Shown: positions 6,897 through 61,456, numbered from the stretch's first letter. The stretch is 64,000 nucleotides of DNA from Candidatus Neomicrothrix sp. UBA6944 (GCA_002448715.1 DJZU01000095.1:22179-86178), one strand, 5' to 3'. The notes: generated by a model from the letters alone, not told the origin. Program-made: numbers and translations.

Positions 6897-7019
6897 TGGA
6901 ACTCCTGGGACGGAACGTCTACTCCAGTCTAGAAGCGCAAATGTGCGTGGTGGGTTTCTGCAACGGGCAAAACAACGCTCCTCACGAGGATCTTTCCGAG
7001 TTTGGGCTCGAGCGACTAC

Positions 7020-7033
7020 GTGGAACGTTCCAC
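7020..7033. promoter_or_regulatory. Perfect 14-bp palindrome GTGGAACGTTCCAC in the fdh/iclR divergent intergenic region (candidate operator)
   Basis: The self-complementary sequence is read directly. It lies 29-42 nt upstream of the iclR ATG (7062) and 124 nt upstream of the fdhA ATG. Confidence 0.45.
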
Positions 7034-7061
7034 AATGTGGCACACTCGCGTAGAGGTGAAT

Positions 7062-9558: not shown

Positions 9559-9590
9559 TTATTTTCCTCGCCCCCTACTGTCTGCTGTCC

Positions 9591-12122: not shown

Positions 12123-12350
12123 TCCTTTAGTTACGCAAAAGCAGTAGTCGGAGGCTAGCTCTTACGGGCATCCCTTAGGCAACAAGAAGCTCTCTGCCCG
12201 CGCTTTAGACCAAGGACCTGCCTGAACCGCGAATTCTGTATGATGGAACAATTCCGTACAGTGAAACAGTATTGGGCCCAGGGTCACACTGTTCAAGGAA
12301 CGTTTCTGGTCCCGTCCTCAGGCGTGACAGTTATGGGAGAGGTGAGCTCC

Positions 12351-14048: not shown

Positions 14049-14057
14049 GGGAGTGCG

Positions 14058-14927
14058 GTGTCGGTCTTCCCGAGCAAGGAACTGCCAGGCGACAAGGCCC
14101 ACCGCCGTGAGCTACTGGATCGAGCCCGCTTTGAGGTGATCCCTTTAAAGAATCTTACGAACCAGCTCCCCTTTCTGCCGCCCGGCACGGAGGTATCGGT
14201 CACCGCGTCTCCCGCAAAGACACTTGAGGACACTTGGTCGCTGAGCCGTGATTTGTTCGAAATGGGGATGAAACCGATTCCCCATTTGGCGGCCCGAATG
14301 ATCACGAGTCGAAATCAGCTTCGGATGTTGATTGAGCAGTTACCCGATATCGGGGCCTCAGAAATATTTCTGGTTGCCGGCGACGCGCCGGAGCCGTTCG
14401 GGCCGTTTACCGATTCCCTGCAAGCGCTCGAAACCATTCTCGAGTTAAACCATGGACTGACCCATATTGGGGTCAGTGCATATCCCGATGGCCACTCCCT
14501 CATTGATTCACGGGTGCTTTCGGAGAGCCTCCACAAAAAGGAGGCGTTTCTGCAAGCCAGCGACATCGAAGGGCATGCAGCGACCCAAATGTGCTTCGAT
14601 CCAAGCACCATTCGTAGCTGGCTTTCCGAAGAGCGCAAGGGCGGGCTGGCTTTACCAGTGCATTTGGGCATCCCAGGAGTCGTTGAGCGCACGAAGTTGC
14701 TGTCAGTCGGCGCAAAGCTAGGGGTCGGAGCCTCGCTACGTTTCCTCAAGAAAAATCGTGCAACCCTGACGCGGATGTTCGCTCCAGGTGGATATAACCC
14801 CGACAAGCTCCTGGGGCCGCTAAATCCTGATCTCAAACAACTCGGAGTCGAAGGGCTACACGTTTTCACGTTTAATCAGGTGCAAAGCACGGTCGCTTGG
14901 CGCGCGCAGGCACTTGCCCGAAGTTGA
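14058..14927 (+). CDS. metF: Methylenetetrahydrofolate reductase
   Basis: 289 aa with MetF-like TIM-barrel sequence (EVSVTASP..., FLVAGD..., HLGIPGV). The GTG start is preceded by GGGAG. Confidence 0.75.
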   Translation: MSVFPSKELPGDKAHRRELLDRARFEVIPLKNLTNQLPFLPPGTEVSVTASPAKTLEDTWSLSRDLFEMGMKPIPHLAARMITSRNQLRMLIEQLPDIGASEIFLVAGDAPEPFGPFTDSLQALETILELNHGLTHIGVSAYPDGHSLIDSRVLSESLHKKEAFLQASDIEGHAATQMCFDPSTIRSWLSEERKGGLALPVHLGIPGVVERTKLLSVGAKLGVGASLRFLKKNRATLTRMFAPGGYNPDKLLGPLNPDLKQLGVEGLHVFTFNQVQSTVAWRAQALARS

Positions 14928-14945
14928 ATTTCTAACAGATGGGGG

Positions 14946-16160
14946 TTACTCGGCCCCCAACACGTCTATGCGTAGAACGTGCTCAAGGTTTTGTAAGGAG
15001 TTTATGGTCGAAGCCGTCGGTGTTTGGGACACTCGGATCGTAGCCATGGCCGCTGTCGGCCCATCGCCCTGAAAGATCTCGTTACGCATCTGTTGAACAT
15101 TTATGCCGGCACTACGGAGACAAGACAGAACGCCTGCCAGGACACCAACCTCGTCGCGGTGGCGAACCGCTATTGCGCACTCCCCTAGCGGTCGGCTGGC
15201 GATATTGACGCAATTTTGCGGAAGGCCGAGTTCGTATTCTCTAATGGTGTCTAAGACACCGTTGGCGATCGCTTCCCGCGCCTGGCTGGTTGAGGCGCCA
15301 ATATGATGAGTTCCCACAAAGTTTGGGTGGCCACTAAAAGGCGACCTCCAATCTGTGGTACCAGCTTTGGGTTCCGACACATATACGTCCAAACCAACGC
15401 GAATTTCACGTTCGTTCATAGCTTTTAGAAGGTCCTGTTCGTTGACAAGACCCCCACGAGAAGTGTTGATCAACATGGCGCCCGGATGCATGTCGCTGAG
15501 AAAGTCGCCGTTGACTAGATTCTGCGTGTCCGCAGTTAGAGGAAGGTGAAGAGTAACAATATCGGCAGCGCCGAGTAGCTCTTCCCGAGTCTGGTGCATC
15601 TGAACTTCCAAATCCTCAATTTTTTGTTCAGTTGTGGCGTCCCGATGCGTGCTTGCGAGGGCATGAAGGGAAAGTCCGAATCCTTTTGCTCGAGTGGCTA
15701 CCTCTAGCCCTATGTTTCCGAGACCAAATATCGCCAACGCTTGACCCTTCAGGCCGCGCGCCTGCGAGTACCGCTCCTTGTTCCAAACGCCGGTACCGAA
15801 ATCAGCATTGGCTGCTGGGATCTGGCGATCGATCGCGATGATCAACCCCATAGTCAATTCGGCGACAGCTACGGCGTTTTGTCCGGGCACGTTACACACG
15901 TAGATTCCGGCCGCGCTTGCCGCGTCGACGTCAATAGTGTCGGTACCTGCTCCTGCTCGAATGATCAGCCCGAGTTGCGGTGCCGCTGAGATCACATCGG
16001 CGTTGACAACGGAGCTTCTAACAACGATAACGTCAGCGCGTTCGACGTTACTGACAAGGTTTTCACGCTCTACCGATGAGAGGGACGTGCAGCTATGGCC
16101 CAGTGCCTCAAGCTCTGCAACGAAGCCGTCTTCGGCCGAATCCACAAGGACTATCTGCAC
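14946..16160 (-). CDS. D-isomer-specific 2-hydroxyacid dehydrogenase, phosphoglycerate dehydrogenase-like, with a C-terminal ACT-like domain
   Basis: NAD Rossmann motif GLGNIGLEVA is present. The catalytic region reads NTSRGGLV...HIGAST. The C-terminal ~75 aa resembles an ACT domain. Confidence 0.75.
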   Translation of the reverse strand: MQIVLVDSAEDGFVAELEALGHSCTSLSSVERENLVSNVERADVIVVRSSVVNADVISAAPQLGLIIRAGAGTDTIDVDAASAAGIYVCNVPGQNAVAVAELTMGLIIAIDRQIPAANADFGTGVWNKERYSQARGLKGQALAIFGLGNIGLEVATRAKGFGLSLHALASTHRDATTEQKIEDLEVQMHQTREELLGAADIVTLHLPLTADTQNLVNGDFLSDMHPGAMLINTSRGGLVNEQDLLKAMNEREIRVGLDVYVSEPKAGTTDWRSPFSGHPNFVGTHHIGASTSQAREAIANGVLDTIREYELGLPQNCVNIASRPLGECAIAVRHRDEVGVLAGVLSCLRSAGINVQQMRNEIFQGDGPTAAMATIRVSQTPTASTINSLQNLEHVLRIDVLGAE

Positions 16161-36372: not shown

Positions 36373-37182
36373 TTAGCGGTCGAGGGAACCAGTGATCGAC
36401 GATATTGCAAAAGATTGGGTCGCTACCGCCAATAAGGTTCCAGTTCGAGAGAAAATTTCTACGCTTCCATGCCCGATGCTGTTTTCAATAGCAGCTGATC
36501 GAATACAGAGAAGCACCCAGCTGCTTTGTTCCTGGCTTAGTAGTCGCACTGAGTGGTCCAGACTCGAGCCGCGAAAGCCCTTGTCAAGGCTTACCCTCAT
36601 ACCGCTGGGCAGTAGGTCGGCGAGAGCAATCAATCCTTGTGTTGAGGACGCCAGAGTGTCATCAAGTCGAGCCCAGTAGTAGACGTCCTTCTCCCCAGGC
36701 TTTTGCCAAGCTAAACGAATGTCGGCAAAGTCATTGAACGATCTACCACTCTCCGAAGTAGCGCCACGGCTACTGCACTGCTCCGGTTCAGGCACCTCGG
36801 GTGGAGTCGACCACTGTCGGTCGACCTCAAGATCGTGACCGCCTAAAGCAGCTGCAGCACGAAACACTGTGAGCTCGCCATGGCGGCAGGTGACTGCCGC
36901 TTGTGTGATTCTGTTCCCTACTGCGAGTTCCCTTACTTCAATATCAACTTCAGCACCAACCGACGCTCTGGCCAGAAACTGCCCGGATATATATGCCAGT
37001 CGTCGTCCTGTAGTTCTCTCGAGAGCACCCGCGGCAGCAGCGAGACCGCAACCGCCATGGAGCGTGCCGGTAGCGCCAGCGACTTCATCAGTTACCTTGA
37101 GCTTCCAGGCGCCCGGCTCGACCCCTTGATCCAAGGGAGCAATTTGGTTCACTTCGGCGCCTTCTTGCGCAGTCGAACTCAC
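36373..37182 (-). CDS. Acyl-CoA thioesterase (double hotdog, TesB-like)
   Basis: 269 aa with two hotdog-like halves (GTLHGGCGLAAA... and ...SLDHSVR). The assignment is by eye only. Confidence 0.5.
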   Translation of the reverse strand: MSSTAQEGAEVNQIAPLDQGVEPGAWKLKVTDEVAGATGTLHGGCGLAAAAGALERTTGRRLAYISGQFLARASVGAEVDIEVRELAVGNRITQAAVTCRHGELTVFRAAAALGGHDLEVDRQWSTPPEVPEPEQCSSRGATSESGRSFNDFADIRLAWQKPGEKDVYYWARLDDTLASSTQGLIALADLLPSGMRVSLDKGFRGSSLDHSVRLLSQEQSSWVLLCIRSAAIENSIGHGSVEIFSRTGTLLAVATQSFAISSITGSLDR

Positions 37183-37240: not shown

Positions 37241-37810
37241 TTACTTCACCCACGGACCGCTTTGTCCACTTTCGTAGTGGTCAGGTCGTATACCGAATGC
37301 TTCAATCATCCGTTGCCAACCGCTCCCGACCGCAAGAAGCGCCCCAAGGCGAAGAATCTCAACTTCCGAAAAATGTTCACGTAAACGTGCGTGAAGTTCG
37401 GCGGGTATTGGGCCCTTAGGGGAACCCGATAGGTGCTCACTGAACTGCACAGCGGCCTTCCAAGCTTCAGGTAAGTCAGAATTTTCATAATCTGAGAGCT
37501 GAGCGACTACCTCATCTGTGAGACCAGAGCGCACCAACGATGCGCTTTTAACCATGCTTCAATGGAAACATTCGTTCACATTTGCCATTCGAATTCGACA
37601 GAGTTCAATCATTTGGCGATCAAGCCCTGACTCGCCGCCGTACATAAGGCCGACCCAACCAAGGAACATTTCTAAGGTCAGGTCATCATTAGCCAGCGTA
37701 CGAAAGAGGTTGTCGTCTTTGTAGGCCTTCGCATACCAGGTCTCAAGCCGCGCTCGCTGGTCGTCGCTTAAATTGTCAAGTTTGGGTAGGTGCCCTAGTT
37801 GATTAGCCAA
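37241..37810 (-). CDS. Carboxymuconolactone decarboxylase (CMD)/AhpD-like protein with in-frame UGA (candidate selenocysteine, C-F-H-U); the ORF track splits it into 37559..37810 and 37241..37555
   Basis: Read-through gives ...LCRIRMANVNECFH-U-SMVKSASLV..., 189 aa. The UGA (37559..37561) falls where the family has the second Cys of CxxC. Both halves look like one CMD domain, and neither half alone is a plausible protein. Confidence 0.75.
37528..37561 (-). promoter_or_regulatory. Candidate SECIS hairpin downstream of the CMD-like UGA
   Basis: mRNA reads UGA AGC AUG GUU AAA AGCGCA UCGUUGG UGCGCU. A perfect 6-bp stem (37546..37541 with 37533..37528) carries a 7-nt G-containing loop and starts 12 nt after UGA. 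Confidence 0.6.
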
Positions 37811-37960: not shown

Positions 37961-39055
37961 ATGCAGATGAAAGCCGCAGTTTTATGTGAACAGCCTGGCG
38001 AATTGGTGATTGAAGATCTCAATATTGACTCGCCCGGGCCCCAAGAGGTCTTGATTCAGACCGTCGGCGCCGGCCTATGTCACTCAGATTTGCACTTTAT
38101 GGAGGGGCTCTTTCGAACGAAGGTTCCGGCTGTCATGGGACATGAATCCGCTGGAATCGTCCAGGCGGTGGGCACAGACGTTAGGTACGTCGAGCCTGGT
38201 GATCATGTAGTTGCTTGCTTGTCCATATTCTGCGGTCAGTGCAGGCAATGCCTCTCAGGTAATCCGCATCGCTGCAGCAACGGACGGGCCACATCCCGTA
38301 ACCGAGACGACTCCCCCAGGCTGCAACGCTCAGATGGCACACCCGTCGACCAGATGGCGCGTCTGGGCGGCTTCGCTGAGGAGATGCTGGTCCACCAAAA
38401 CGGCGTCGTTAAAGTAACCCCGGATATTCCATTAGAAAAAGCATGTCTTATAGGTTGCGGCGTTACTACCGGATTTGGCGCCGCAGTGAGGACTGCCGCA
38501 GTTCCGGTTGGCGCCACGGTCTGTGTTATCGGATGTGGCGGCATTGGATTATCCGCGATTCAAGGTGCTCGAGTAGCCGGAGCCGGTCGCATTATCGCCG
38601 TAGACATGAGCGGGCCGAAGCTCGAAACAGCCCGTTTAATGGGGGCGACGGACACGATAAACGCTGGGGAAGTTGAGGATGTGGTCGGCGCTGTGCGCGA
38701 CCTCACTAAAGGTGGCGTCGAATACAGCTTCGAAGCAATTGGATTGAAGGCCACAGCAGAGCAAGCCTTCGAGATGCTTGATGTTGGAGGGACCGCAACT
38801 GTGATTGGCATGGTCCCTTCAAGCACCAAACTGGAAATCAGAGGAATAGAACTGTTAAGTGAGAAAAAGCTTCAAGGGTCAATGATGGGATCCAATCAGT
38901 TTCGAACTGATATCCCCCAAATGATCGACCTCTATTTGGGTGGTCGCTTACTTCTTGACGAAATGGTGTCAGCCACCATCCCGTTAGAGGAAGTTAACGA
39001 AGGGTACGCCTGGATGAAGGAGGGCACGGTCGCTCGAACAGTGGTTACGTTCTAA
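37961..39055 (+). CDS. Zinc-dependent alcohol dehydrogenase (class III / formaldehyde-dehydrogenase-like)
   Basis: GLCHSDLH, GHESAGIV, the structural Zn Cys cluster CGQCRQC...C, and the Rossmann motif GCGGIGLS are present. Confidence 0.88.
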   Translation: MQMKAAVLCEQPGELVIEDLNIDSPGPQEVLIQTVGAGLCHSDLHFMEGLFRTKVPAVMGHESAGIVQAVGTDVRYVEPGDHVVACLSIFCGQCRQCLSGNPHRCSNGRATSRNRDDSPRLQRSDGTPVDQMARLGGFAEEMLVHQNGVVKVTPDIPLEKACLIGCGVTTGFGAAVRTAAVPVGATVCVIGCGGIGLSAIQGARVAGAGRIIAVDMSGPKLETARLMGATDTINAGEVEDVVGAVRDLTKGGVEYSFEAIGLKATAEQAFEMLDVGGTATVIGMVPSSTKLEIRGIELLSEKKLQGSMMGSNQFRTDIPQMIDLYLGGRLLLDEMVSATIPLEEVNEGYAWMKEGTVARTVVTF

Positions 39056-46437: not shown

Positions 46438-47121
46438 ATGGCACCTGAGAGCTCGACCCTAAAGAAAGGGTCTCGTGTTGTAGTCATCACTGATCTGCCT
46501 GGCGTTTCTGCCGGCACCACTGGCAGAGTCGGTCGATCAATCGGTGTCAAAACAACCCGCTACCGGGTCAAGTTTGACAATGGCGTTGATGTCTTGTCCG
46601 TTGCTGAAGGAAAACTCGTCTCAACAGCGGCCTGGGAATTCCTTAAACAAGGTCAAATCGGTGACGGTCCCAAGATAAGCCAAGGAGCGGTTCCCGCCGC
46701 GGTTCCCGTCGGAGCCGCCCCGGCTCAGGCTCCACCACCTGCGACACCTCAACCGGCTCAAACACCACCTGAGACAACTCCCCCTGACCCACCCACCGCA
46801 AAAGAGCCCGAAGCTCAGGCTGCTACTGACTCCGGAGACACAAGCGAGGATCCTCGCCTCGCCGCTCTGACTGCCAAATCGCGAGGCGCTCGCAAGGCGG
46901 CAGGTATTGACGTCGACGCCGAAGACAGTGCTGCACCTGACACTCAAACGGATGCGCAAGCAGATGCGTCGGAAGACGAGGTCGACGAGCCGGAGACCGT
47001 GACCGCTAACGCTTCAGAGGTGGAGTCAGACTCGGGGCCCTCACTGCCTGATCTGCCAGACGGCTACTATCCATCCGATAACCGAATTGCTGACCTACTC
47101 GCTTCTGTCAAACAGGGTTAG
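46438..47121 (+). CDS. Hypothetical protein: small N-terminal beta-rich domain plus a Pro/Ala/Thr-rich and acidic disordered tail
   Basis: 227-aa ORF. Residues ~85-215 are low complexity (APAQAPPPATPQPAQTPPETTPPDPP..., DAEDSAAPDTQTDAQADASEDEVDEPE). Confidence 0.5.
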   Translation: MAPESSTLKKGSRVVVITDLPGVSAGTTGRVGRSIGVKTTRYRVKFDNGVDVLSVAEGKLVSTAAWEFLKQGQIGDGPKISQGAVPAAVPVGAAPAQAPPPATPQPAQTPPETTPPDPPTAKEPEAQAATDSGDTSEDPRLAALTAKSRGARKAAGIDVDAEDSAAPDTQTDAQADASEDEVDEPETVTANASEVESDSGPSLPDLPDGYYPSDNRIADLLASVKQG

Positions 47122-49322
47122 TTAGCCTGCGCTCGTGGAATTGGAAAGGGCGTTGGATCCAGGAACCGTTCCAATACGTTGCCCGTGATACGTGCGACGT
47201 CGTTTTCATATCCATTGCGGGCTAGTGCCCCAAACCACGAAATCGAACCCACACTAAACACAGCGCCGCCGCCCGGGGTTTCATAAAACACCATGTCCGC
47301 CCTCACAAACGGGTCTGGGATCGGAAAAGCCACTGTGCCTTCAAATTCCTCCTTAGTGCGGAGCATGTCTGACCCAAATTCGGTAGCCGAAGCCAAGATC
47401 ACGGCATGGCCTGGTGATCCGAGACGTTGATCGTAGCGATCAACCTCTTGGCCAGCTGCTCCGCCCCCCAAGCCCGATGTCCCTATCTGCTCGTCGTCAA
47501 CACCCTCTAGGATCCACGCGGCGCGAGAAGCCTTCGCCTCTGGGCTTCTTTGATAGAAAGTCGCTTTCTCAAACCCTTGTGCAGCGAATCCGATGCCGAC
47601 GAGCTCATTCGGCGCCCTACCGTTTCTTCGCCACAGGCCTCCATACTCAGCGCCCCAAGCGTGGTAGTTCTCACCGTCACCAGTCTGCCAATTGCGAACC
47701 CCATCCTCGGCGCGCCTCAGTTCGATCGCGCCCGGCCAATGTTCGCTAAACGCGACTCTCCAATAAAAACCGTTGCCTCCTAAGTACATCAGGCGGCCCC
47801 CTTGCCTTTGCCACTCATCAAGGGCGTCAAGCATTGCCGTGGACCAGTATTCAGGGTGACTGCCAGTAACGATGACTCGGTACGGGGCTAAGGCGGCATA
47901 GCCGTCGGTATGAAGATCTTCGTCAGCGACGATGTCGTGGCCTACCTCGGCATGCAGCAAAAAAGCATTGATATCGGTATCAGGCGTAAAATTCCAACCA
48001 TCAGCACCCGGGCGTACCTGGAGAACCGGTCTGCGTCTGGAGCTGAACATTACGCCACTACCGTCGGGATGCTTTTCGTAATGACTCAGCCCGAGATCGC
48101 CGTGATCAACTAGGTATTGATGTTCTGGGCGGAGGTTTGTCCTAGCGCCGACAAAATCAGCGCCTTCAATTAGCATGCGGTGGTTTGCATACGCCATGTA
48201 AGTCGCTGACGGCACTAGTAAGGCGACTTCTGAGTGATGTGCGTTAACTGCTGGGCGCACAAAGAACGGTACGCGATCAACTCCTAGCTCCGATCGAAAT
48301 CGAAAGCAGTAGATACCGCTCGGCAATTCCGGCGGGAGGTCTATGCGGTGATTTGGTTGCCATCCGGCGTCATATAAATCGTCATGGTGGAAATGAATTG
48401 CATTCCACTCATTGGGCCCATCGCTCCATCTCTGATGGTCACCTGTCCACTGTGGGCCCGTCACTCCCCTCGTCGGCAACTGCAGCAAATGGAGGTTCGA
48501 CTCTCCGATCGCGGCGGGCACGATCGCCTCCTCCATAGCAACTTCCAACCGCCATTCGTTGACAACCGGCCCAACTCTTAGCTTGGGGTCTGCTACGCGC
48601 CCATCCCATCGCTCGCCGTTCAATCCGGCCGCTAAACGCAAAACCGGATCCTTGAATGTCAGTTCAGGTACATCCAATGTCGAAGCTTCTTCTCCTTGTT
48701 GGAGTAAGTCGCGAGCCGGTGACGCCGATCCAGGGGAACTGACGCTGACCGTAGCCACTCCACCTTCGCCGTCAATATCGATCGTCAGGAGGTACCAGCG
48801 TCTGCGCTCCAGCGGAGTCTTACGCAACGGATGCTCGACACCGCCAAATCGCCCCAAAAGTGAGGTTCCAGCGTTATAGACCTCGATGTCTGACCCTTCG
48901 CTCTCCAGCGAGATAATCACAGCATCACGTTTGAGCAACGTAGGTTGAAACCAAAGGCTTAGTGTTAAGAAAGACTCTGGTTTGCCGGTGAGTACAAGCG
49001 CTTCAGCATATGACCCTGGCACTATCGGTTGATTGATTAGGTCAATCGAAATGGTAGGAACTATCTCGCACTCGTCTTCCGAGAACCCCGGGCCGCTTCG
49101 CGTTGGATCGCCGCAGTTGAGCTTGACTACATCGAGATCCCCTGTGGTCGCCTGCAGGCTTGAACCAAACCACTCGATGGTTTCACCTGCGCGTAGGGAC
49201 CACGGCTCGCAATAACCTGTTATGAGCTTGGGGGCTGGTTCGTGGTCACTAACAGGCATTTGATGCAATTCAAAAAGCTGGTTCAGTAACTCGCGGGTCA
49301 CTTCGCTCGGTTGGCTTTCCAA
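47118..49322 (-). CDS. N,N-dimethylformamidase large-subunit-like protein
   Basis: ~734 aa. The N-terminal jelly-roll/LamG-like region and the C-terminal region (GGAAGQEVDRYD, GGGAVFSVGSISWFGAL) resemble the DMFase beta-subunit family as I recall it. The start is uncertain: TTG at 49322 or ATG at 49259. Confidence 0.5.
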   Translation of the reverse strand: MESQPSEVTRELLNQLFELHQMPVSDHEPAPKLITGYCEPWSLRAGETIEWFGSSLQATTGDLDVVKLNCGDPTRSGPGFSEDECEIVPTISIDLINQPIVPGSYAEALVLTGKPESFLTLSLWFQPTLLKRDAVIISLESEGSDIEVYNAGTSLLGRFGGVEHPLRKTPLERRRWYLLTIDIDGEGGVATVSVSSPGSASPARDLLQQGEEASTLDVPELTFKDPVLRLAAGLNGERWDGRVADPKLRVGPVVNEWRLEVAMEEAIVPAAIGESNLHLLQLPTRGVTGPQWTGDHQRWSDGPNEWNAIHFHHDDLYDAGWQPNHRIDLPPELPSGIYCFRFRSELGVDRVPFFVRPAVNAHHSEVALLVPSATYMAYANHRMLIEGADFVGARTNLRPEHQYLVDHGDLGLSHYEKHPDGSGVMFSSRRRPVLQVRPGADGWNFTPDTDINAFLLHAEVGHDIVADEDLHTDGYAALAPYRVIVTGSHPEYWSTAMLDALDEWQRQGGRLMYLGGNGFYWRVAFSEHWPGAIELRRAEDGVRNWQTGDGENYHAWGAEYGGLWRRNGRAPNELVGIGFAAQGFEKATFYQRSPEAKASRAAWILEGVDDEQIGTSGLGGGAAGQEVDRYDQRLGSPGHAVILASATEFGSDMLRTKEEFEGTVAFPIPDPFVRADMVFYETPGGGAVFSVGSISWFGALARNGYENDVARITGNVLERFLDPTPFPIPRAQAN

Positions 49323-49711
49323 TCCTCGTATGACTCGATTGGCATTTCGTCAGCCTGCCAACCGCCGAACCCGGTTTCAATATGACTGATGCGTTCCATT
49401 CCCATATCTTTAAGTGTCTTTGCAGATAGAGCTGACCTCATTCCACCGGCACAGCACAAGATGAACTCTCGATCTTCTCCAAACACTTCTTTGGTGTAAG
49501 GCGAGTCTGGCGACACCCAAAATTCCAGCATGCCGCGGGGTGCGTGCATCGCCCCTGGAATAGCGCCATCTCGCTGCATTTCACGGACATCTCGAATGTC
49601 AACGATCAGGGCGCCTTCGTCGCCAGCTCGACGAGATGCCTCTTCGGGAGAAATATTGTCAATTTCGGCTTTTGCCGCCTCGACCATTTTCTTTACTGAT
49701 TCGATCGCCAT
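49298..49711 (-). CDS. Rhodanese-domain sulfurtransferase
   Basis: Active-site loop CCAGGMRS is present. ATG 49711 is preceded by GGGAGAGG. Confidence 0.8.
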   Translation of the reverse strand: MAIESVKKMVEAAKAEIDNISPEEASRRAGDEGALIVDIRDVREMQRDGAIPGAMHAPRGMLEFWVSPDSPYTKEVFGEDREFILCCAGGMRSALSAKTLKDMGMERISHIETGFGGWQADEMPIESYEDWKANRAK

Positions 49712-49775
49712 TTTTGCCTCTCCCAAACAGTTTTGAATCGACGAAATGTTCGTCGGTTAGATAATCATTACCGAT

Positions 49776-51002
49776 CTAGCTCTGAGTGTCACTTCGTGAA
49801 CTTTCAGCCAGCAGAATCGCGTTCTCTTCCAGCGTTTGGATTTTGTCATCTGAAAGTGACAGCACTTCTCGCAATACCTCGTCGTTGTGTTGGCCAAGGA
49901 GGGGCGCTGGCGGTTCTTGGTCCGGTGGGTCATACGCACCAAATCGAATTGGAAGGCCCGTAACTTCTATGGATCCGAAGTGTGGGTCCTCCACCTTGCG
50001 GACCATGCCGCGCTCTGTGAAGTGAGGATGCCGCATTGCTTCTTCAGGACTCAAGACAGGCGCTGCCGGTAGGCGCCATTGTTCTAGGTACTGGAGGAGT
50101 TCCTGGTCAGACCCAAACTCCTGCATCCAGTTCTCCACCAAGGCGAGTAACGCCTTGGCATTTTCTACCCTGGAGTCAGATGTAGCGAAGCGCTCGTCTG
50201 TCGCTAAGTTCTCCCGGCCCATGGCTTCACACAACCTCGGCCACTGCGGTTCTAAGACCTGCAATACGATCCAACCATCGGGACCTTTGTAGGTACCTGA
50301 TGGAACTACGATACTGAACTGCCTACCTGATCGTTGTTGGCTCCACTCTCCCTTCGTGGCGCTGTGGCCCTGAACAGCAATGGAGTGCATCGCAAATAGC
50401 GGATCGACCAAGGTGACCTCGACATATTGGCCCTCGCCAGTACGTTCTCTATGGAACAAGGCGTGACCGATAGCCCCAAAGAGCGTTAAGCCAGCAGCGC
50501 AATCCGATATGGGAGATCCAGTGAATTGCGGCGCGCCGTCTGCTTCTCCAGTCAGATGCATCATTCCCGACAGCGCCTGGCCCATCAGGTCGAAGCCCTG
50601 CAGATGTGAAAGTGGGCCCGATTTACCAAATGCCGAGATGGAGGCCATGATCAGTTCGGGGTTGAGCTTTTTAAGAGTTTCCCAATCAAGCGCTCTCCGC
50701 TCGAGAACTCCAGGACCAAAATTTTCGACGACTAAGTCGCAATTAATGGCGAGTTCCCTAGCGACTTGGCAACCTTCCTCGGTACTTAGATCTAAACACA
50801 GCGATCGTTTTCCTCTGTTCTGCTGGGTGTAGTACGAAGAGGACCCCGTACCAGACACGAACGGCAAGGTGCGGCTCGGGTCACCGTGCGGCCCGTACTC
50901 GACCTTTATAACGTCGGCGCCCAATTCCGCCAACATCCGAGTAGCGCTGGGTCCGGACAGATACTGCGTAAAGTCAAGGACTCGGACATTCTCGAGAAGC
51001 AT
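49776..51002 (-). CDS. Family III CoA-transferase (second copy)
   Basis: VRVLDFTQYLSGPSAT N-terminus. 408 aa. Confidence 0.85.
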   Translation of the reverse strand: MLLENVRVLDFTQYLSGPSATRMLAELGADVIKVEYGPHGDPSRTLPFVSGTGSSSYYTQQNRGKRSLCLDLSTEEGCQVARELAINCDLVVENFGPGVLERRALDWETLKKLNPELIMASISAFGKSGPLSHLQGFDLMGQALSGMMHLTGEADGAPQFTGSPISDCAAGLTLFGAIGHALFHRERTGEGQYVEVTLVDPLFAMHSIAVQGHSATKGEWSQQRSGRQFSIVVPSGTYKGPDGWIVLQVLEPQWPRLCEAMGRENLATDERFATSDSRVENAKALLALVENWMQEFGSDQELLQYLEQWRLPAAPVLSPEEAMRHPHFTERGMVRKVEDPHFGSIEVTGLPIRFGAYDPPDQEPPAPLLGQHNDEVLREVLSLSDDKIQTLEENAILLAESSRSDTQS

Positions 51003-51078
51003 CTAAAGACCTTATGTCGGTGACCCAGATTCCGCACCCGTGTTGGCTCAGGGCTATTAGGAATGTCAGAATTTGAGG

Positions 51079-53073
51079 ATGGCGGATCTTGTGCTTGGCA
51101 TCGATGCTGGAGGGACGTTCACCGACGCGCTCCTTTACTGCAAAGAAGAGAACTCGGTTCTAGCGCGAGCTAAAACGCCTACCACCCACGACAATCTCAG
51201 CCTGTGCCTCGCTGCGGCTTTAGAAACTGTCATGGGAAAGGTGGCTGTCGCCCCATCCCAGATCTCCGTCGTGTCAGTTTCCACAACGTTGGCTACCAAC
51301 GCCTTAGTAGAGGATGGCGGACGAGCCGCGGGCCTCGTAACAATCGGCTTCAAGGAGGATGCCCTTAGTCGTGCGGGGCTTTCGCGCATCAGCGAGCGCT
51401 CACCCCACCTGAAGCTGGCTGGCGGACATTCTTCGCATGGGAGTGCCCTCCAGGATCTCGATCTCAGGCCGTTGGACGAGTGGCTAACCGAACACGACTC
51501 CAGACTCGAGGCATACGCGGTGGCTGGTTCCTTTAGCGTGCGGAACCCCGAACACGAACAACTCGCAGGTAGCTTCATTCAAAGTCGGACAGGCAAGCCA
51601 GTGACTGTCAGCCATGAGCTTTCCTCGAACTTAAACGCCCCCAAGCGCGCGACTACTGCTCTACTCAATGCCAGACTGGTGCCAATCGTCAACGAATTGG
51701 TAACCGGCGTTGAAGGCTCAATGCTGCGAGCTGGTTTGACCTCCCGGTTAATGGTGATGCGTGGTGACGGCTCGTTGGTTTCTTCTGACTTTGTTCGGGA
51801 CCGACCAATCGAGACAATTCTCTCAGGTCCTGCGGCAAGTGCTATTGGCGCGGCAGCACTCGCCGGAATCGACGACGGAGTGGTGGTAGATATAGGTGGG
51901 ACTACAACCGATGTAGTCATAATTAACGAGGGACGACCTGTCGCTGCGCCTTCGGGCGCAGTCGTAGGAGGCCACGAGACCATGGTGAGCGCTGTTCGAG
52001 CCCACACGTTTGGCATTGGTGGAGACAGCCGCATTCAGCACAACCCGCTCAGTGACGATGACTTCACAATCGGACCTTCGCGAGCAACCCCGTTGGTTGT
52101 GGCTGCAATTGAGCGGCCGTCAATTCTTAGCGCGCTCTCTCAACAACTTGAACGAGGCCGCGCCCAGGAAACCGACGGTGTATTTCTATGGCTTCGGGAG
52201 ATCGCCGGGTCGGATCGAGGCGCCTCTCGAGCCGAGAGAGATGTTCTGGCTGAATTGGCGAACTTTTCTGAGGGCGCGAGCCTCGAATCAGTCGCCCGGA
52301 CACAACTAGCGCACAACGCCATCAACAGGCTCATTAGTTCCGGCGCTGTCGGGGTTAGCGCTTTCACGCCAACGGACGCAGCGCACATACTCGAGATTGA
52401 CAACCGATATTCGGTCGATGCGGCAGTAGTTGGCGGGATTTTACTGGCGCGGCAACTCGACAGATTCGGAGTGCCTCTTGCAGTGAGTGAAGCAGACATG
52501 GCTGGTTTGGTGATCCAGCGGGTTAGAGAACGAACAGCAGAAGCGGTACTTATAGCCGCAGCGGACCACGATGCCCTTTCAGCCACAGAGCTCTCTTTGG
52601 TGTTGAAGGCGCAACGCAGTCGTGTCAGCGCCACTGATCGCTCCCCCCTTCTCAGGATGGAGCTCGGCGTGGCCGGTTCCGTTGCGCTGGTAGGCGCCCC
52701 AGCTCATTGTCTTGGGCCTGCCAACACCGAGGAGTGGAGAATTCATTCTGCGATACCCGACCATTTCGAGATCGCTAATGCTTTTGGGTCAGCTATCGGC
52801 GATATTCGCCTTGCGCATCAGATCACTGTAAGCGCTCCGCGCCGCGGTCTTTACCGGGTCCACATTGACGAACCCATCACTTTTTATGATCTGAAAGCAG
52901 CACAACAGTTCGCTGAGGAGAAGGCCGAGGCCCACTTGCGCAATGAAATGCGTTTCGCTGGCGGCCAGTCCTGCAACATCACACACAATTGGGATCTCGA
53001 GCAAGCAATAGTCGAAGAGCGGGAACTCTTTGTAGAAGCAACCCTCAAAAGCAGGGCTTTAGGTTCCCCGTAA
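51079..53073 (+). CDS. Hydantoinase/oxoprolinase (HyuA-type, ASKHA-fold) family protein
   Basis: LGIDAGGTFTD and VVDIGGTTTDV phosphate-binding motifs are present. No HyuB partner gene is adjacent. Confidence 0.7.
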   Translation: MADLVLGIDAGGTFTDALLYCKEENSVLARAKTPTTHDNLSLCLAAALETVMGKVAVAPSQISVVSVSTTLATNALVEDGGRAAGLVTIGFKEDALSRAGLSRISERSPHLKLAGGHSSHGSALQDLDLRPLDEWLTEHDSRLEAYAVAGSFSVRNPEHEQLAGSFIQSRTGKPVTVSHELSSNLNAPKRATTALLNARLVPIVNELVTGVEGSMLRAGLTSRLMVMRGDGSLVSSDFVRDRPIETILSGPAASAIGAAALAGIDDGVVVDIGGTTTDVVIINEGRPVAAPSGAVVGGHETMVSAVRAHTFGIGGDSRIQHNPLSDDDFTIGPSRATPLVVAAIERPSILSALSQQLERGRAQETDGVFLWLREIAGSDRGASRAERDVLAELANFSEGASLESVARTQLAHNAINRLISSGAVGVSAFTPTDAAHILEIDNRYSVDAAVVGGILLARQLDRFGVPLAVSEADMAGLVIQRVRERTAEAVLIAAADHDALSATELSLVLKAQRSRVSATDRSPLLRMELGVAGSVALVGAPAHCLGPANTEEWRIHSAIPDHFEIANAFGSAIGDIRLAHQITVSAPRRGLYRVHIDEPITFYDLKAAQQFAEEKAEAHLRNEMRFAGGQSCNITHNWDLEQAIVEERELFVEATLKSRALGSP

Positions 53074-53080
53074 GCGAACT

Positions 53081-54577
53081 CTACTTAGCTGCTGCGATTG
53101 CCGCATTGCGTCCAAGAGTTTGGCACTGCGGATCGGATTGGAGAATTTGGCTGCGATCTGGGGTCGGTGTGGCACAGAGCGCTGACTCCCCGAAATGACC
53201 CTCAAGGGACTTAGCGATCCCAAGAAGATTCAAATCTTCATACATGGGCCCAACGCATTGGACCCCAAACGGAAGGCCATTGCGATCTAACCCGGCGGGC
53301 AACGCGGTCACGGGGTGCCCTACTACCGTTAGGCAACTTGTCAGGCCCAACCATGCCATGTAGTTCTCAACGGGGGAATCGTCAATCTCTCTGGGATGCA
53401 ACGACACCCACGGAAACGGTGGAACGCTGACCGTGGGACAGAGTACGACGTCGACTTCATCGAATACACGATCAACGGTTTCGAATAGTTCTTTTTGGCG
53501 TCGGCGCGCTTGAGCAATCGCAAGTACTGACGTCGACAAGGCCGTCTCATAGCTGCGGAACACATTCGGATTAAACGTGTCATCAAAGGACTCGATCTCA
53601 CGGTGATATTGGGTCGCGAAGATGTCAGACCGTAGCTGCCAATCAACGTCGATCGCATCGGTTAGGTCCAGCGGTACTTGACGTATCCTGGCTCCGCGCC
53701 CTTCTAGGTATTCGATGCGTTGTGCGAAAGCCTTCCGCACGTCATCTGAAACTGGCAATCCGCCAAAATCGTCCGTAAAACCGATGTCAAGGCTATTCAG
53801 GGCAGGCGTATCGATCGCGAGGAACTGACTTGCGTCCAAGGGGAAGCTCATCGGATCCTGTCGACTGGAGCGGTCCCGCATTGCGATCGCTGCGAGTAAC
53901 AAACCCACATCGTCCACGCTTCGAGCCATGGGCCCTTGAAGGCTGTAGTTGGTTTGGGTGATGGTGCGGGCTTCGTTGGGCACTGTGCCCGGTGTGGCTC
54001 GATGACCTACGACACCACAAAAACTTGCGGGAATTCTGAGGCTCCCGCCGTGGTCAGAACCCGTCGCCAGTGGCGCCATATGGGCGGCTACTGCTACAGC
54101 TGATCCTCCAGAAGAGCCGCCACATGTCAACGAGGGTGCGTAGGGGTTTCCGGTTGCACCAAAGATTCGATTGATTGTATTTGCGCCAATGCTCATCTCC
54201 GGGATGTTCGTTTTGCCAATGACGATGCCACCGGCTGCCTTGACTCGAGCGACGATGCCCGAGTCTTCGGTCGGGACATGGTCTTTATAAAACTCTGTGC
54301 CGTAGGTGGTGACTAAACCTTGAGTGGCCTGAAGGTCTTTGATCGCTACCGGTAGCCCGTGAAGCACACCCGTGGCGGCACCTGCTTGGATTTGTGCTTC
54401 TGCAGCTCGGGCCTTATCAAGGGCATCTTCATCACATCGTCCCACCACTGCGTTCAGCGTGGGATTCAACTCGTCGATTCGTTCTAGGCAGGATTGCGTT
54501 AACTCCACAGGCGATAGCTCGCCATTGAGAATTGCCGTCCGAGCCTCGTGAGCACCGAGGTCGCAGGGCTGATTCAC
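53081..54577 (-). CDS. Amidase (amidase-signature family)
   Basis: GGSSGGSAVAVA signature and the upstream KD...T region are present. 498 aa. Confidence 0.9.
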   Translation of the reverse strand: MNQPCDLGAHEARTAILNGELSPVELTQSCLERIDELNPTLNAVVGRCDEDALDKARAAEAQIQAGAATGVLHGLPVAIKDLQATQGLVTTYGTEFYKDHVPTEDSGIVARVKAAGGIVIGKTNIPEMSIGANTINRIFGATGNPYAPSLTCGGSSGGSAVAVAAHMAPLATGSDHGGSLRIPASFCGVVGHRATPGTVPNEARTITQTNYSLQGPMARSVDDVGLLLAAIAMRDRSSRQDPMSFPLDASQFLAIDTPALNSLDIGFTDDFGGLPVSDDVRKAFAQRIEYLEGRGARIRQVPLDLTDAIDVDWQLRSDIFATQYHREIESFDDTFNPNVFRSYETALSTSVLAIAQARRRQKELFETVDRVFDEVDVVLCPTVSVPPFPWVSLHPREIDDSPVENYMAWLGLTSCLTVVGHPVTALPAGLDRNGLPFGVQCVGPMYEDLNLLGIAKSLEGHFGESALCATPTPDRSQILQSDPQCQTLGRNAAIAAAK

Positions 54578-55476
54578 GCTTCAGACCTTATGACGTCAAT
54601 GCCACTTGGATCGATGCGTCTCCCGTGAACTTCCATATTGTTGCTGTGTCCCACGTGGTGCAGAGAGAACGCTGCTTGCAAGGCGCTGTACATTCCTGTC
54701 GCGTCGACGGCTTGATTCACGCTCTGTTTTGCCAGGGTCAACCCGAAGCTGGGTCGTTTAGCTATATGCGATGCCAATTTGAGCGTTTCGGCCTCAAGGT
54801 CTGATCTCGGTACCACTTTGTTGACCATCCCACGCTCCATCAGCTCACGAGCATTCAAGGATCGGCCGGTGAAAAGCATTTCTTTCGCCAAACGAGCACC
54901 TGCCTCGAATGGGTGTGCGAAGTACTCAACGCCGTTGACGTTGAACGCAACCACCGGATCGCTAAAACTGGCGTCGTCTGAAGCCACTATCAGGTCCATT
55001 GGCCAGACCAGCATGAGCCCTCCGGCTATCACCTTGCCTTGTACCTGAGCGATGGTCGGTTTGGCAAGATTTCGCCAACGCCAGCACAGCCCCAAATACA
55101 TTTCTGCCTCTCGAGCCATGTAACCCTCTGTTCCGGCAGCATCGAAATGACATTGAGTTCCAACGGTCGGAAAGTCATCCATATCAACTTCCCCAGCCGA
55201 AAGATCATGACCTGAGGAAAAGTGCTTTCCGTCTGCTGCGAGAACAATGACTCGGATGGTGTCGTCAGCAGCCGCTACATCGAACGCTGCATTGAGTTCT
55301 GACAACATCAAATAGTCCTGGGCGTTGGCGGCCTCAGGCCGGGCGAGGGTGATTCTGGCTACTCCCTCTGCAGGCGTTTCATATCGAATTCGTTCGTAAG
55401 TCAAGGTTCGCTCCAACTGGTCTGCACCGATGGTAGGTCCAAGCTGCCTCATTAGCTGCCTCATGACTTGTTTCAC
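54574..55476 (-). CDS. Enoyl-CoA hydratase/isomerase (crotonase) family protein
   Basis: Crotonase pattern (FSSGHDL, GGLMLVWPMDL). The exact start is uncertain (GTG 55476 or ATG 55464/55452). Confidence 0.82.
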   Translation of the reverse strand: MKQVMRQLMRQLGPTIGADQLERTLTYERIRYETPAEGVARITLARPEAANAQDYLMLSELNAAFDVAAADDTIRVIVLAADGKHFSSGHDLSAGEVDMDDFPTVGTQCHFDAAGTEGYMAREAEMYLGLCWRWRNLAKPTIAQVQGKVIAGGLMLVWPMDLIVASDDASFSDPVVAFNVNGVEYFAHPFEAGARLAKEMLFTGRSLNARELMERGMVNKVVPRSDLEAETLKLASHIAKRPSFGLTLAKQSVNQAVDATGMYSALQAAFSLHHVGHSNNMEVHGRRIDPSGIDVIRSEA

Positions 55477-55535
55477 CTCTCTTCGCGCGTCACCACCACG
55501 AAACAGCTAATTTGTGATATCGAGGAGGTTGATCT

Positions 55536-57131
55536 GTGACTGCCGTTGAAACGAGAGATGTGCTGGTCGTCGGCGCCGGCTTTGGGGGCCTCTATTCCCT
55601 GTACGTTCTGAGGGAAGCGGGTTTTCATGTGACTGCCGTCGAGCGCGGAACGGGTGTCGGTGGGACTTGGTATTGGAATCGTTATCCCGGTGCGCGATGC
55701 GATGTTGAAAGTCTTCAATATTCATATTCTTTTGACGATGACCTGCAACAAGAGTGGGAATGGACCGAAAGATACGCCGGTCAGCCTGAGATCCTGAAGT
55801 ATGCCCAACACGTGTCAACTAGATTCAATTTGACCGAGCTGATTGACTTCAACACCAACGTAGAGTCGATGAGTTACGACGCTGACGAACAACAGTGGAC
55901 TGTAAGCACCAACTCCCTCACCTACCAAGCGCAGTTCGTGATCGCTGCTACGGGTTGCTTATCAAGTACAAATCTGCCCGAGTTTCCTGGATTGGAGCTG
56001 TTTCAGGGCGATACCTACCACACCGGACGTTGGCCCCACCAAAAAGTTGACTTCAGTGGTCAACGGGTCGGCATCATCGGTACAGGCTCATCTGCTGTTC
56101 AAGCGATTCCCGTTATCGCCGCCGAAGCTGCCGAACTCACCGTGTTCCAAAGAACTCCCAACTATTCGATTCCCGCCCATAACAAACCGCTGGATCCCTC
56201 AGAACAGAGTGACGTGAAGAGCCGGTACGAGGAGCTGAGAAGTGCTGCTCGAGCCGAGCGATCCGGAATTCTTTCCATATTTCCACCAAACGAGGATCTA
56301 GCCAGGGAAGCTACAGATGCCGAATTCAAAGCTCGAATGAACGAACGCTGGGATTACGGCGGATTTGGTTTCTATCGGTCTTACATAGACATCGTGGTCG
56401 ACCCTCAATCAAATGAACGAGTAGCTGACTATGTGCGCTGGCATATCGCATCGAAAGTCGACGACCCCGCGACCGCCGCTCTTTTATCCCCATCCAATAC
56501 GATTGCTTGTAAGCGTCCCTGTTTGGACACGGAGTACTACGAGACCTTCAATTCCCAACACGTGCACCTAGTCGACATCTCCGAAACCGAGATACAAGCC
56601 ATTACTCCAACCGGATTACGCGTAAACGACCAGGAGTTTGAGTTCGACTCCCTGGTCTTTGCGACAGGGTTCGATGCCATGACTGGCGCTCTACTTGGCA
56701 TGAACATCACCGGGATCGATGGTTACACCCTTGACGAGGCGTGGGCTGAAGGGCCACGAACCTACCTCGGGCTCAGCGTTCCAAAGTTCCCAAACCTTTT
56801 TACCGTGACCGGTCCGGGAAGCCCTTCCGTGCTGACCAACATGATCATGGCTATCGAGCAGCACGTCGAATGGATTCGAGATTGCTTAGTCTCAATGAGA
56901 GAAGACCAGATCGCCACCATTGAAGCCTCATCCGACGCGGCTGACTCGTGGGTGCAACACGTCAACGCGATAGCAGATCAAACCCTCTACCCGAGCTGTA
57001 ACTCCTGGTACCTGGGTGCGAATATTCCGGGCAAGACCAGGGTTTTCATGCCACTGATCGGCTTCCCTGCCTACGCGGAGCGCTGTGAACAGGTCGCTGC
57101 GAACAGCTACGAGGGGTTCGCGCTTGCCTGA
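55536..57131 (+). CDS. Baeyer-Villiger (type I flavin-containing) monooxygenase
   Basis: GAGFGGL, the BVMO fingerprint FQGDTYHTGRWP and a second Rossmann motif GIIGTGSSAVQ are present. Confidence 0.9.
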   Translation: MTAVETRDVLVVGAGFGGLYSLYVLREAGFHVTAVERGTGVGGTWYWNRYPGARCDVESLQYSYSFDDDLQQEWEWTERYAGQPEILKYAQHVSTRFNLTELIDFNTNVESMSYDADEQQWTVSTNSLTYQAQFVIAATGCLSSTNLPEFPGLELFQGDTYHTGRWPHQKVDFSGQRVGIIGTGSSAVQAIPVIAAEAAELTVFQRTPNYSIPAHNKPLDPSEQSDVKSRYEELRSAARAERSGILSIFPPNEDLAREATDAEFKARMNERWDYGGFGFYRSYIDIVVDPQSNERVADYVRWHIASKVDDPATAALLSPSNTIACKRPCLDTEYYETFNSQHVHLVDISETEIQAITPTGLRVNDQEFEFDSLVFATGFDAMTGALLGMNITGIDGYTLDEAWAEGPRTYLGLSVPKFPNLFTVTGPGSPSVLTNMIMAIEQHVEWIRDCLVSMREDQIATIEASSDAADSWVQHVNAIADQTLYPSCNSWYLGANIPGKTRVFMPLIGFPAYAERCEQVAANSYEGFALA

Positions 57132-57147
57132 CAACCATCATTGTCAG

Positions 57148-57690
57148 ATGCTCTCCGTGACGTTGGGCGACCTCACTACCATGAAGGTGGATGCGATAGT
57201 CAATGCCGCAAATACTCAGTTGGCTGGCGGCGGCGGCGTCGATGGAGCAATCCACTTAGCAGCCGGGCCGACTGTCCTTGAAGAGTGTCGGGCGATTGTG
57301 GAATCACAAGGGCCATGTCTCACCGGCGACGCTGTCATTACAGCCGCAGGTAATCTTTGGGCATCATGGGTGATTCACACCGTGGGCCCAATTTGGGGCA
57401 ACCACGATCCAATCGACAGCAGCACACTTCTTGCTAGTTGCTACAGCTCATCCCTTGATGTTGCATCAACAGTAGGGGCTAAAAGTGTTGCTTTTGCCTC
57501 AATCAGCACCGGGGTGTACGGCTTTCCGCGAGAGCTCGCTGCGCCCATCGCGGTGAGCTCTGTGCTTGAGTGGCTGCAAGGCAATGCTGCCACCGCCTCG
57601 ATTAACGCTGTGACACTGGTGTGCTTCGATCAGGGCAACCACGCGTTAGTTCAGGATTCGCTAAACCGTCTTTGCCGACACAGCAACTAG
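57148..57690 (+). CDS. Macro-domain protein (O-acetyl-ADP-ribose deacetylase / ADP-ribose-binding)
   Basis: VDAIVNAANTQLAGGGGVDGAIH and SISTGVYGFP are present. Confidence 0.88.
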   Translation: MLSVTLGDLTTMKVDAIVNAANTQLAGGGGVDGAIHLAAGPTVLEECRAIVESQGPCLTGDAVITAAGNLWASWVIHTVGPIWGNHDPIDSSTLLASCYSSSLDVASTVGAKSVAFASISTGVYGFPRELAAPIAVSSVLEWLQGNAATASINAVTLVCFDQGNHALVQDSLNRLCRHSN

Positions 57691-57815
57691 GAGCACTCAT
57701 TCGCCTCACTTTGCTGGAATGTCAACCCTGAGCGCCTACCACTGTTATGTTGGCCCTGCCCGATGGCACATCCATTCGCGTCTGGGCAACCCGACAGAAA
57801 GGCCACGGGACCCCA

Positions 57816-59036
57816 ATGCCGGACGAAAATTCAATAATTCAACTCGAAGAGGTCTTCAAGATCTTCGGGCCACAACCTCGTGGCCGCGCTTTCGATCTCG
57901 CCAAGGCCGGTGTTCACAAAAACGATGTCCAGAAACAGTCAGGCCACGTCGTTGGGCTCAGCGATGTTTCTTTTTCGGTGAAGAAGGGCGAAATTTTCGT
58001 CGTAATGGGTCTCTCCGGCTCGGGAAAGTCAACGGCAATCCGAACCGTCAACAAACTCCACGACGTCACCCATGGGCAGGTCATCGTAGACGGAGTCGAC
58101 GTCCAACAACTTGAGGGCAAGGAACTTCAGGCCTTCAGGCGAGAAAAAATGGGCATGGTGTTTCAACACTTTGCTCTCTTTCCTCACCGAAACGTGATCG
58201 ACAACGTGGCCTACGGCCTCAAAGTCCAAAAAGTTGACCGGAAGGAAAGAGAAGCAGCAGCTTTAAACGCCCTAAGGCTCGTCGGGCTCGAACCGTATGC
58301 AGATAACGCGACGAGCGAACTGTCAGGCGGCATGCAACAACGCGTCGGCCTCGCCCGAGCCTTAGCCTCAGATCCCGACATCTTGCTCATGGACGAAGCT
58401 TTTAGCGCTCTCGATCCGCTAATCAGGCGCCAAATGCAAGACGAACTCATGACCATTCAAGACGAGGTTCACAAAACAATCCTCTTCATCACTCATGACT
58501 TAAATGAGGCACTCCGAATAGGCGACCGAGTCTGCATCATGAAAGATGGCGTCGTAGTGCAGGTCGGCACACCTGAAGAAATCCTCACCCAACCAGCCAC
58601 CGGCTACGTCGCTGAATTCGTCCAAGACGTAGACCAGGGAAGAGTCATCAAAGTCGAAGAAATTATGGTGCCACCCGATCCCCTCCGGATCGATACGGAG
58701 TTCGACCAAGTGGTTAGCTCATTGGCCGACGTCAGAGAGCGGCTGGTTGTAGACGCGTCAGGGAAATGCATCGGCCTAGTCACCCGAGGGGACGTGGAAC
58801 GGGTCGCTACACAGGGAGTTCCAACCCTCGCAAGTGCGCTCAGAACCGATGTCCCCATCGCCGCTCCATCACAAACGCTCAACGAGCTTTATGCAGATGC
58901 TGGCCGCGGGCTACCCATTGCTTGCTGCGATGCGGACGGTCAGCTCGTCGGTCGCATGGACCCAACTGCGGTACTTGAAGAACTTGGACGCGTTGAGGCC
59001 CTAGCCGACGCATTCGAACGAGAGGTGTACATGTGA
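57816..59036 (+). CDS. proV: Glycine betaine/proline-type ABC transporter ATP-binding protein with tandem CBS domains
   Basis: Walker A GLSGSGKST, LSGGMQQRVGLARAL and ILLMDEAFSALD are present. The C-terminal ~120 aa are CBS-like. Confidence 0.9.
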   Translation: MPDENSIIQLEEVFKIFGPQPRGRAFDLAKAGVHKNDVQKQSGHVVGLSDVSFSVKKGEIFVVMGLSGSGKSTAIRTVNKLHDVTHGQVIVDGVDVQQLEGKELQAFRREKMGMVFQHFALFPHRNVIDNVAYGLKVQKVDRKEREAAALNALRLVGLEPYADNATSELSGGMQQRVGLARALASDPDILLMDEAFSALDPLIRRQMQDELMTIQDEVHKTILFITHDLNEALRIGDRVCIMKDGVVVQVGTPEEILTQPATGYVAEFVQDVDQGRVIKVEEIMVPPDPLRIDTEFDQVVSSLADVRERLVVDASGKCIGLVTRGDVERVATQGVPTLASALRTDVPIAAPSQTLNELYADAGRGLPIACCDADGQLVGRMDPTAVLEELGRVEALADAFEREVYM

Positions 59037-61321: not shown

Positions 61322-61456
61322 CAGCTTCGCTACAAAAGGTTGGTGAGAGTGCCGCAATGTACGGTTCTTCGCTCTTTAGCGACTAACCTCCTTTTGGCGT
61401 GTCTGGGCACCACCCATAGACCGCAATAACAAGGGACTCTAGGGAGGGCCCCATTT

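Follow-up and report, generated by a model that had tools for sequence, protein, structure and literature searches.

Introduction

AhpD-like proteins with a CxxU motif were introduced in 2005 as a new selenoprotein family, recognized from 27 Sargasso Sea sequences and assigned to COG2128 (Zhang, Fomenko & Gladyshev; PMC1088965). In the GOS data of 2008, 37 samples yielded 299 sequences of ‘AhpD-like 1’, which put it fourth in abundance among the prokaryotic selenoprotein families (Zhang & Gladyshev; PMC2398784), and CxxU was given as the family motif (PMC2398784 Table 2). More recently, ‘AhpD-like protein, TIGR01926, CxxU’ has been listed as a selenoprotein family in a 2026 review (PMC13188914), TIGR01926 being the ‘peroxidase-related enzyme’ model, that is, the AhpD-like family (NCBIfam).

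The stretch of DNA analysed here, hereafter the window, comprises 64,000 nucleotides from Candidatus Neomicrothrix sp. UBA6944, and its minus strand at 37241..37810 very probably carries one gene for an AhpD-like protein in which an in-frame UGA is read as selenocysteine (Sec) with the aid of a bacterial SECIS. Gene callers take this UGA as a stop, and as a result the gene is split, here and throughout public databases. To our knowledge, the AhpD-like selenoprotein family is without biochemical characterization.

The GOS data already hold close relatives of this gene. In supplementary file 3 of the 2008 study (PMC2398784), the ‘#AhpD-like 1’ block includes two reads spelled with U: JCVI_READ_1091141208564 (MANVNECFHUSMVKSASLVRSGL...GPWDE), whose identity to the window protein is 87.6% over residues 75-187 of the latter, and JCVI_READ_1091138259703, for which the figure is 71%. 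Both reads are orthologs of the window gene, and the exact orthologous group has therefore been published before as a predicted selenoprotein. In the original prediction, marine metagenomes were named as the source of predicted AhpD-like/CMD selenoproteins. The window motif is not contained in the Sargasso Sea supplement (PMC1088965), which was searched for it.

Gene structure and the split ORFs

Two minus-strand ORFs, of 83 and 104 aa, share one frame with a single TGA as the sole separator, and reading through it yields 189 aa; this arrangement, as first described, is confirmed by the sequence and by the ORF calls. The features of the gene are as follows.

37241..37810, minus strand: complete coding sequence of the predicted AhpD-like selenoprotein, 189 aa, based on the ORFs, the TIGR01926 match and the ortholog termini
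37808..37810, minus strand: start codon TTG, with GGAG 7-10 nt upstream
37559..37810, minus strand: upstream ORF, 83 aa, with the TTG start
37604..37606, minus strand: codon of Glu69, the Glu of the AhpD-type E-x11-C-x-x-C/U signature, invariant in 28/28 aligned family members
37568..37570, minus strand: codon of Cys81, the first residue of CxxU and predicted resolving Cys, TGT or TGC in 38/38 and nearly invariant in the wider family (28 aligned members)
37559..37561, minus strand: in-frame UGA, predicted Sec codon U84 in the motif C81-F-H-U84, TGA in 38/38 orthologs and Cys in relatives
37241..37555, minus strand: downstream ORF, 104 aa
37241..37243, minus strand: stop codon TAA

The N-terminus (M/V/L-ANxLGHLPK) and the C-terminus are common to the orthologs. 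The four gene-called records that were inspected, namely P0014, P0026 and two Tara contigs identical to the window, all divide the gene into ‘hypothetical protein’ entries of 83 and 104 aa, and, by length, nearly all database homologs share the mis-split.

The six frames of the window contain 57 places where a TGA joins two same-frame stretches of 50 codons or more, and folding of the 71-nt segment scores no better than z = -1.32, which is unremarkable in a single sequence. Judged in this one sequence, neither the TGA junction nor the hairpin rises above chance, and the case therefore rests on comparative evidence.

Domain assignment

The 189-aa read-through product, with U replaced by C, matches TIGR01926 from model position 5 to 176 of 178 (residues 8-177, E = 1.7e-13), and neither the 83-aa nor the 104-aa half matches the family when searched separately. 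Though the match is full length, its score of 50.8 bits is below the curated cutoff of 81.8, which marks a divergent sub-branch characterized by C-[F/V]-H-U and K/R at +4. The product also weakly matches two NCBI models named ‘(seleno)protein’ AhpD relatives, and its score against Pfam CMD (PF02627), 22.6 bits (E = 1.1e-4), falls just short of the gathering score of 23 bits. Among PDB sequences, the matches to PA0269 (2o4d, 2ijc, 7xw1; E about 1e-11) and 2prr (residues 8-177) are continuous through the U column, and solved proteins of the CMD/AhpD fold give E = 5e-12 to 2e-6 against the read-through; such significant matches (E = 5e-12) support membership of the superfamily. The proposal of a single AhpD/CMD-type domain broken by the UGA is thus borne out by alignments that cross the codon. 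For the Cys homolog P0013, AlphaFold2 gave an entirely helical model, the confidence of which is low (pLDDT 56; alignment of 3 sequences).

The E-x11-CxxC signature is present with the correct spacing (E69, C81, U84), and the canonical AhpD His (CxxCxxxH) is absent at +4 in the window protein and all 38 orthologs. The residue four after U was rightly read as Lys (K88) in the original prediction, but its contrast with the His of the family is no anomaly, as K or R occupies this position in 38/38 orthologs and also in those Cys relatives that are nearest, His being confined to more distant branches.

Conservation of the UGA and the cysteine relatives

A scan of one genome per species produced 37 orthologous loci, nearly all in MAGs of Acidimicrobiia. 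The MAGs are mostly marine, with seawater, sponges, lakes and soil as sources, and the set includes MedAcidi-G3, MED-G01 and three complete Poriferisodalaceae chromosomes. An in-frame stop occurs at the same column (C-[F/V]-H-*) in all 37 loci, at 47-94% amino acid identity, and the codon at the Sec column is TGA in 38/38 sequences, never TAA or TAG. Protein conservation extends over both sides of the UGA, with purifying selection upstream and downstream.

Cysteine stands at the Sec column in the full-length relatives P0013, P0017, P0031 and P0044, as well as in most of 22 more distant full-length relatives, and the codon is TGC in L062 (the DNA of P0017), the one Cys form checked. The UGA therefore takes the place of the latter of the two CxxC cysteines, as had been proposed, and when homologs of the read-through protein are aligned, either Cys or TGA is found at this column. 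Among 1.84 billion representative proteins, most close relatives stop at the last residue ahead of the Cys/Sec column or start only a little way past it, indicating that the Sec form predominates and is systematically mis-split in databases. The homologs that might pass for independent 83-aa proteins are these split Sec forms with TGA.

Several records deserve separate mention. The protein record P0001 (locus L063) shows W at the Sec column, and its DNA codon is TGA, which had been read with a different genetic code; the Trp of P0128 and the Gly of P0043 are probably artefacts of the same kind, and in alignments the three entries can pass for non-Cys homologs. Two Sec forms with an identical SECIS lie on contigs binned outside the Actinomycetota, to which all the other orthologs belong: L025 (DATLFG010000100.1) is binned as Candidatus Limnocylindria (Chloroflexota), and L028 (DATFUK010000571.1) as Methylomirabilota. 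Their placement could be due to mis-binning or to horizontal transfer.

The predicted SECIS hairpin

The predicted SECIS element is delimited as follows.

37528..37546, minus strand: predicted bacterial SECIS hairpin, based on the fold, frozen synonymous sites and absence from the Cys form
37529..37545, minus strand: conserved SECIS core GCGCAUC-GUU-GGUGCGC, 17 nt, with a 7-bp consensus stem
37536..37538, minus strand: apical GUU, with loop G/U at +24/+25 from the U of UGA

The sequence AGCGCA-UCGUUGG-UGCGCU begins 12 nt after the UGA, with the conserved core 13 nt downstream, and RNAfold adds a U.G and a C-G pair to the stem, leaving a GUU triloop. A bacterial SECIS has been described as a stem-loop immediately downstream with a small apical loop that contains G (PMC1088965); the element here has a 7-bp stem, a GUU loop and a loop G at +24.

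Evidence for selection on the RNA comes from the orthologs. Codons 89-94 (AGC GCA TCG TTG GTG CGC) are almost identical in nucleotides across 38 sequences, and the flanking codons of equally conserved residues vary freely at synonymous sites. Only two variants are seen within the hairpin, both of which keep the pairing: CGC to CGT changes G-C to G-U, and GTG to ATG changes U.G to U-A. Double compensatory changes are absent from the 38 sequences, the element being one that does not vary, and synonymous-site entropy was thus used in place of covariation. Normalised synonymous codon entropy is 0.03 in the hairpin versus 0.82 outside it (Mann-Whitney p = 4e-5), and only two of 74 other conserved columns are as low as the hairpin codons. 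Moreover, the residues encoded by the hairpin differ in Cys forms (SESLVR, SGSLMK, SEGVI), and the hairpin is absent from L062, the one Cys form examined. Frozen in the Sec forms and absent from L062, the hairpin points to a constraint on the RNA that is tied to the UGA. The suggested SECIS-like hairpin, with a G-containing apical loop 20-25 nt from the UGA, accordingly finds support in a loop G at about 24 nt and in RNA-level selection. The invariance of the element among orthologs whose proteins are 47-94% identical might even, though this is rather unlikely, be the mark of a SelB of unusual sequence specificity in the lineage.

Searches of Rfam, with the whole window at the gathering threshold and 37450..37620 at a permissive E-value, gave no SECIS-type match and two chance matches only. 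Little can be concluded from this null result, since Rfam coverage of bacterial SECIS elements is poor (preprint 10.64898/2026.04.03.716425).

Decoding of the UGA

The window contains another gene with an interrupted frame. FdhA (formate dehydrogenase alpha, molybdopterin subunit; 4968..7043, minus strand; TIGR01591, E = 3e-184) is mis-split into ORFs of 137 and 543 aa by a TGA at 6630..6632, which is the canonical Sec site (SCNRT-U-HAPSVVGL). It is probably the first of the candidates in the original prediction, where the AhpD-like gene is counted as the second. The FdhA hairpin GUCGUC-GGUCU-GGCGAC starts at +16 with its loop G-U at +23/24, nearly the geometry of the element in the AhpD-like gene (start +16/17), and its GGUCU loop resembles the E. 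coli fdhF loop. FdhA and the AhpD-like gene would make two selenoproteins in this region of a marine Acidimicrobiia genome.

Genes for Sec decoding were sought nearby. None of selA, selB, selC and selD was found in the 64-kb window, where Pfam, NCBIfam or precomputed annotation covered most long ORFs; the fetched flanks, those of related loci included, were likewise devoid of selA, selB, selD and tRNA-Sec, and ARAGORN, run on the window and on 39 related loci, detected not a single tRNA. As a consequence, the capacity of the host to decode Sec is something that we infer. In Actinomarina, also marine Acidimicrobiia, selA, selB, selC and selD are present in all 84 complete genomes (preprint 10.64898/2026.04.03.716425), and together with the canonical Sec-UGA of FdhA in the window this provides good indirect evidence for Sec decoding in the host.

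With the hairpin conserved and the machinery not found in the window, it is conceivable that the UGA is recoded to a standard amino acid (Trp, Cys or Arg, near-cognate) and that the hairpin stimulates programmed read-through. This is nevertheless quite improbable, given that the column is a redox-active Cys column in which only Cys or Sec would be functional, that the geometry of the hairpin resembles that of the canonical FdhA Sec-UGA in the same window, and that the Actinomarina genomes possess the complete sel set.

A true stop is less probable still, to the point of being very hard to credit. According to this explanation, the locus would comprise two small genes, or encode halves that associate non-covalently, the second translated by reinitiation at an AUG two codons downstream; every gene caller gave exactly the 83/104-aa split, and the window does have an ATG one codon after the TGA. 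However, the ATG with which the 104-aa ORF opens (codon 86) is replaced by a Leu codon (CTC, CTG, CTT or TTG) in 23 of 38 orthologs, 14 of them with CTC, and no other start codon conserved among the 38 could be found for the downstream ORF, which excludes reinitiation. In addition, a stop here would cut a single domain within its active-site motif CxxC, intact Cys versions exist, the codon is always TGA and never TAA or TAG, and a frozen hairpin would be left without a role.

A single base change (TGC or TGT to TGA) would suffice to turn a Cys-type CMD gene into a pseudogene, or to create the TGA as a sequencing or assembly error, but the chance of either is next to nil: the same TGA recurs in 38 independent assemblies and in the Sanger GOS reads, which excludes both, purifying selection is evident on both sides of the codon, and the exact fragment is found in 67 blocks of the metagenome collection. 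Genome-wide reassignment of UGA (genetic code 4 or 25), which the W of P0001 and the G of P0043 at the Sec column might suggest, has a negligible probability and is excluded by the fact that TGA, the commonest stop in the window, ends 23 of 56 well-supported genes, the HMM match of formate-THF ligase stopping at its last residue, and the codon behind P0001 is TGA, its called product stops making sense under table 11, and the window has 55% GC in a lineage of Acidimicrobiia.

Proposed mechanism

In the proposed mechanism, the UGA at 37559..37561 is decoded as Sec during translation. The comparison of orthologs shows that the UGA is conserved and that selection acts on an RNA element next to it; the downstream hairpin would serve as the bacterial SECIS and would recruit SelB.GTP.Sec-tRNA(Sec) to the ribosome, the binding of SelB to the hairpin being presumed.

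By analogy with AhpD and PA0269, the product is most likely a selenol/thiol oxidoreductase or peroxidase-related enzyme, with E69-x11-C81-F-H83-U84 as its predicted active site. Of the two CxxC cysteines in M. tuberculosis AhpD, the second (Cys133) acts as the nucleophile towards AhpC. Should the same chemistry apply, Sec84, at the second-Cys position, would attack a peroxide or the oxidised cysteine of a partner, Cys81 would resolve the intermediate as a Cys81-Sec84 selenenylsulfide, and Glu69 may serve in a proton relay.

Genomic neighbourhood

In the marine clade (L001-L024), a divergently transcribed class-III-like Zn-ADH lies about 150 nt upstream of the selenoprotein gene. In the window it occupies 37961..39055 on the plus strand, and with identities of 77-95% within the clade it exceeds the selenoprotein in conservation. 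The models that it matches best, though below their cutoffs, are those for NDMA-dependent ADH and S-(hydroxymethyl)mycothiol dehydrogenase (mycothiol-dependent formaldehyde dehydrogenase). Downstream on the strand of the selenoprotein gene, a 4HBT_3 thioesterase gene (36373..37182 in the window) and a DUF1330 gene usually follow in the same clade. This ADH/thioesterase/DUF1330 synteny is absent from the freshwater/soil clade (L025-L037), and hence these neighbours do not constitute a family-wide partner. Neither ahpC nor lipoamide-system genes were found among the genes adjoining the Sec locus.

It is rather unlikely, though worth stating, that the Sec AhpD-like protein of marine Acidimicrobiia is the redox part of a conserved module with the Zn-ADH and the 4HBT_3 thioesterase/DUF1330 genes and not a generic antioxidant. 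Such a module might handle thiol adducts or peroxides arising from the C1/methylated-amine oxidation encoded in the window.

The Cys branch has a neighbour of its own. At 4595..6621 of L062, the Cys form P0017 lies 32 nt downstream of a co-directional metallo-beta-lactamase/rhodanese fusion (persulfide-dioxygenase-like), which hints at a sulfur-redox role for that branch; no MBL-rhodanese gene was found beside any Sec form.

Other parts of the window are of metabolic interest. The FDH operon (2367..7043, minus strand) has an unusual arrangement: in the catalytic subunit the match to TIGR01591 does not begin until model position 52, and model positions 1-50 are instead matched by the C-terminal end of another protein, a NuoG-like Fe-S protein (2367..3242), the gene of which is two genes downstream of FdhA, after a fused NuoE/NuoF-like gene (3239..4975). 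This arrangement suggests an NAD-dependent formate dehydrogenase of the FdsA type that has been split or permuted. Two regions, 7802..16160 and 47118..62617, are rich in genes for C1 and methylated-amine metabolism, including the following.

7802..9558: EtfAB
9591..12122: FAD oxidase/GcvT fusion
12240..14048: formate-THF ligase
14058..14927: MTHFR-like gene
47118..49322: N,N-dimethylformamidase-like protein
57747..62617: glycine-betaine-type ABC transporter

These genes fit a methylated-compound oxidation island feeding the FDH.

Significance

The gene group is already known, and its recognition in the window is a sound but ordinary annotation correction. No new question is opened, as the family, the motif and the sequences have been in the literature since 2005-2008. 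The additions made here are modest: an assignment to Acidimicrobiia, the neighbourhood in the marine clade, a delimited and nucleotide-invariant SECIS, and documentation of the mis-annotation. A family abundant in the ocean, the fourth most common in GOS, is thereby supplied with a genomic context and a 17-nt SECIS core. The practical value lies in annotation, since the split recurs in many protein clusters, and in a few cases the caller has even put Trp or Gly for the UGA.

Comparison with known systems

The hairpin can be set against the E. coli fdhF-type SECIS, which is likewise a hairpin beginning about 11-13 nt after the UGA, with a small apical loop and G-U at about +23 to +25. The difference is in the detail of the loop: the GUU triloop here is closed by the C-G and U.G pairs, with no evident bulged U.

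At the protein level, the closest solved structures by sequence are PA0269 and its relatives and 2prr (‘AhpD core, uncharacterized peroxidase-related protein’), and INGCAYC of PA0269 is aligned to VNECFHU. These proteins are about 30% identical to the window protein, from which they differ in being Cys proteins without UGA or SECIS; PA0269 also lacks the N-terminal extension of roughly 55 residues. M. tuberculosis AhpD (E-x11-CxxCxxxH) has the same E-x11-C-x-x-C spacing, and Sec is found here at the position of its second Cys. Unlike M. tuberculosis AhpD, which has His at +4, the window protein has K88 there and an invariant His83 inside CxxU instead. The AhpD-like 1 family shares with the window gene the CxxU motif, the domain and the marine habitat, and differs from it in nothing essential.
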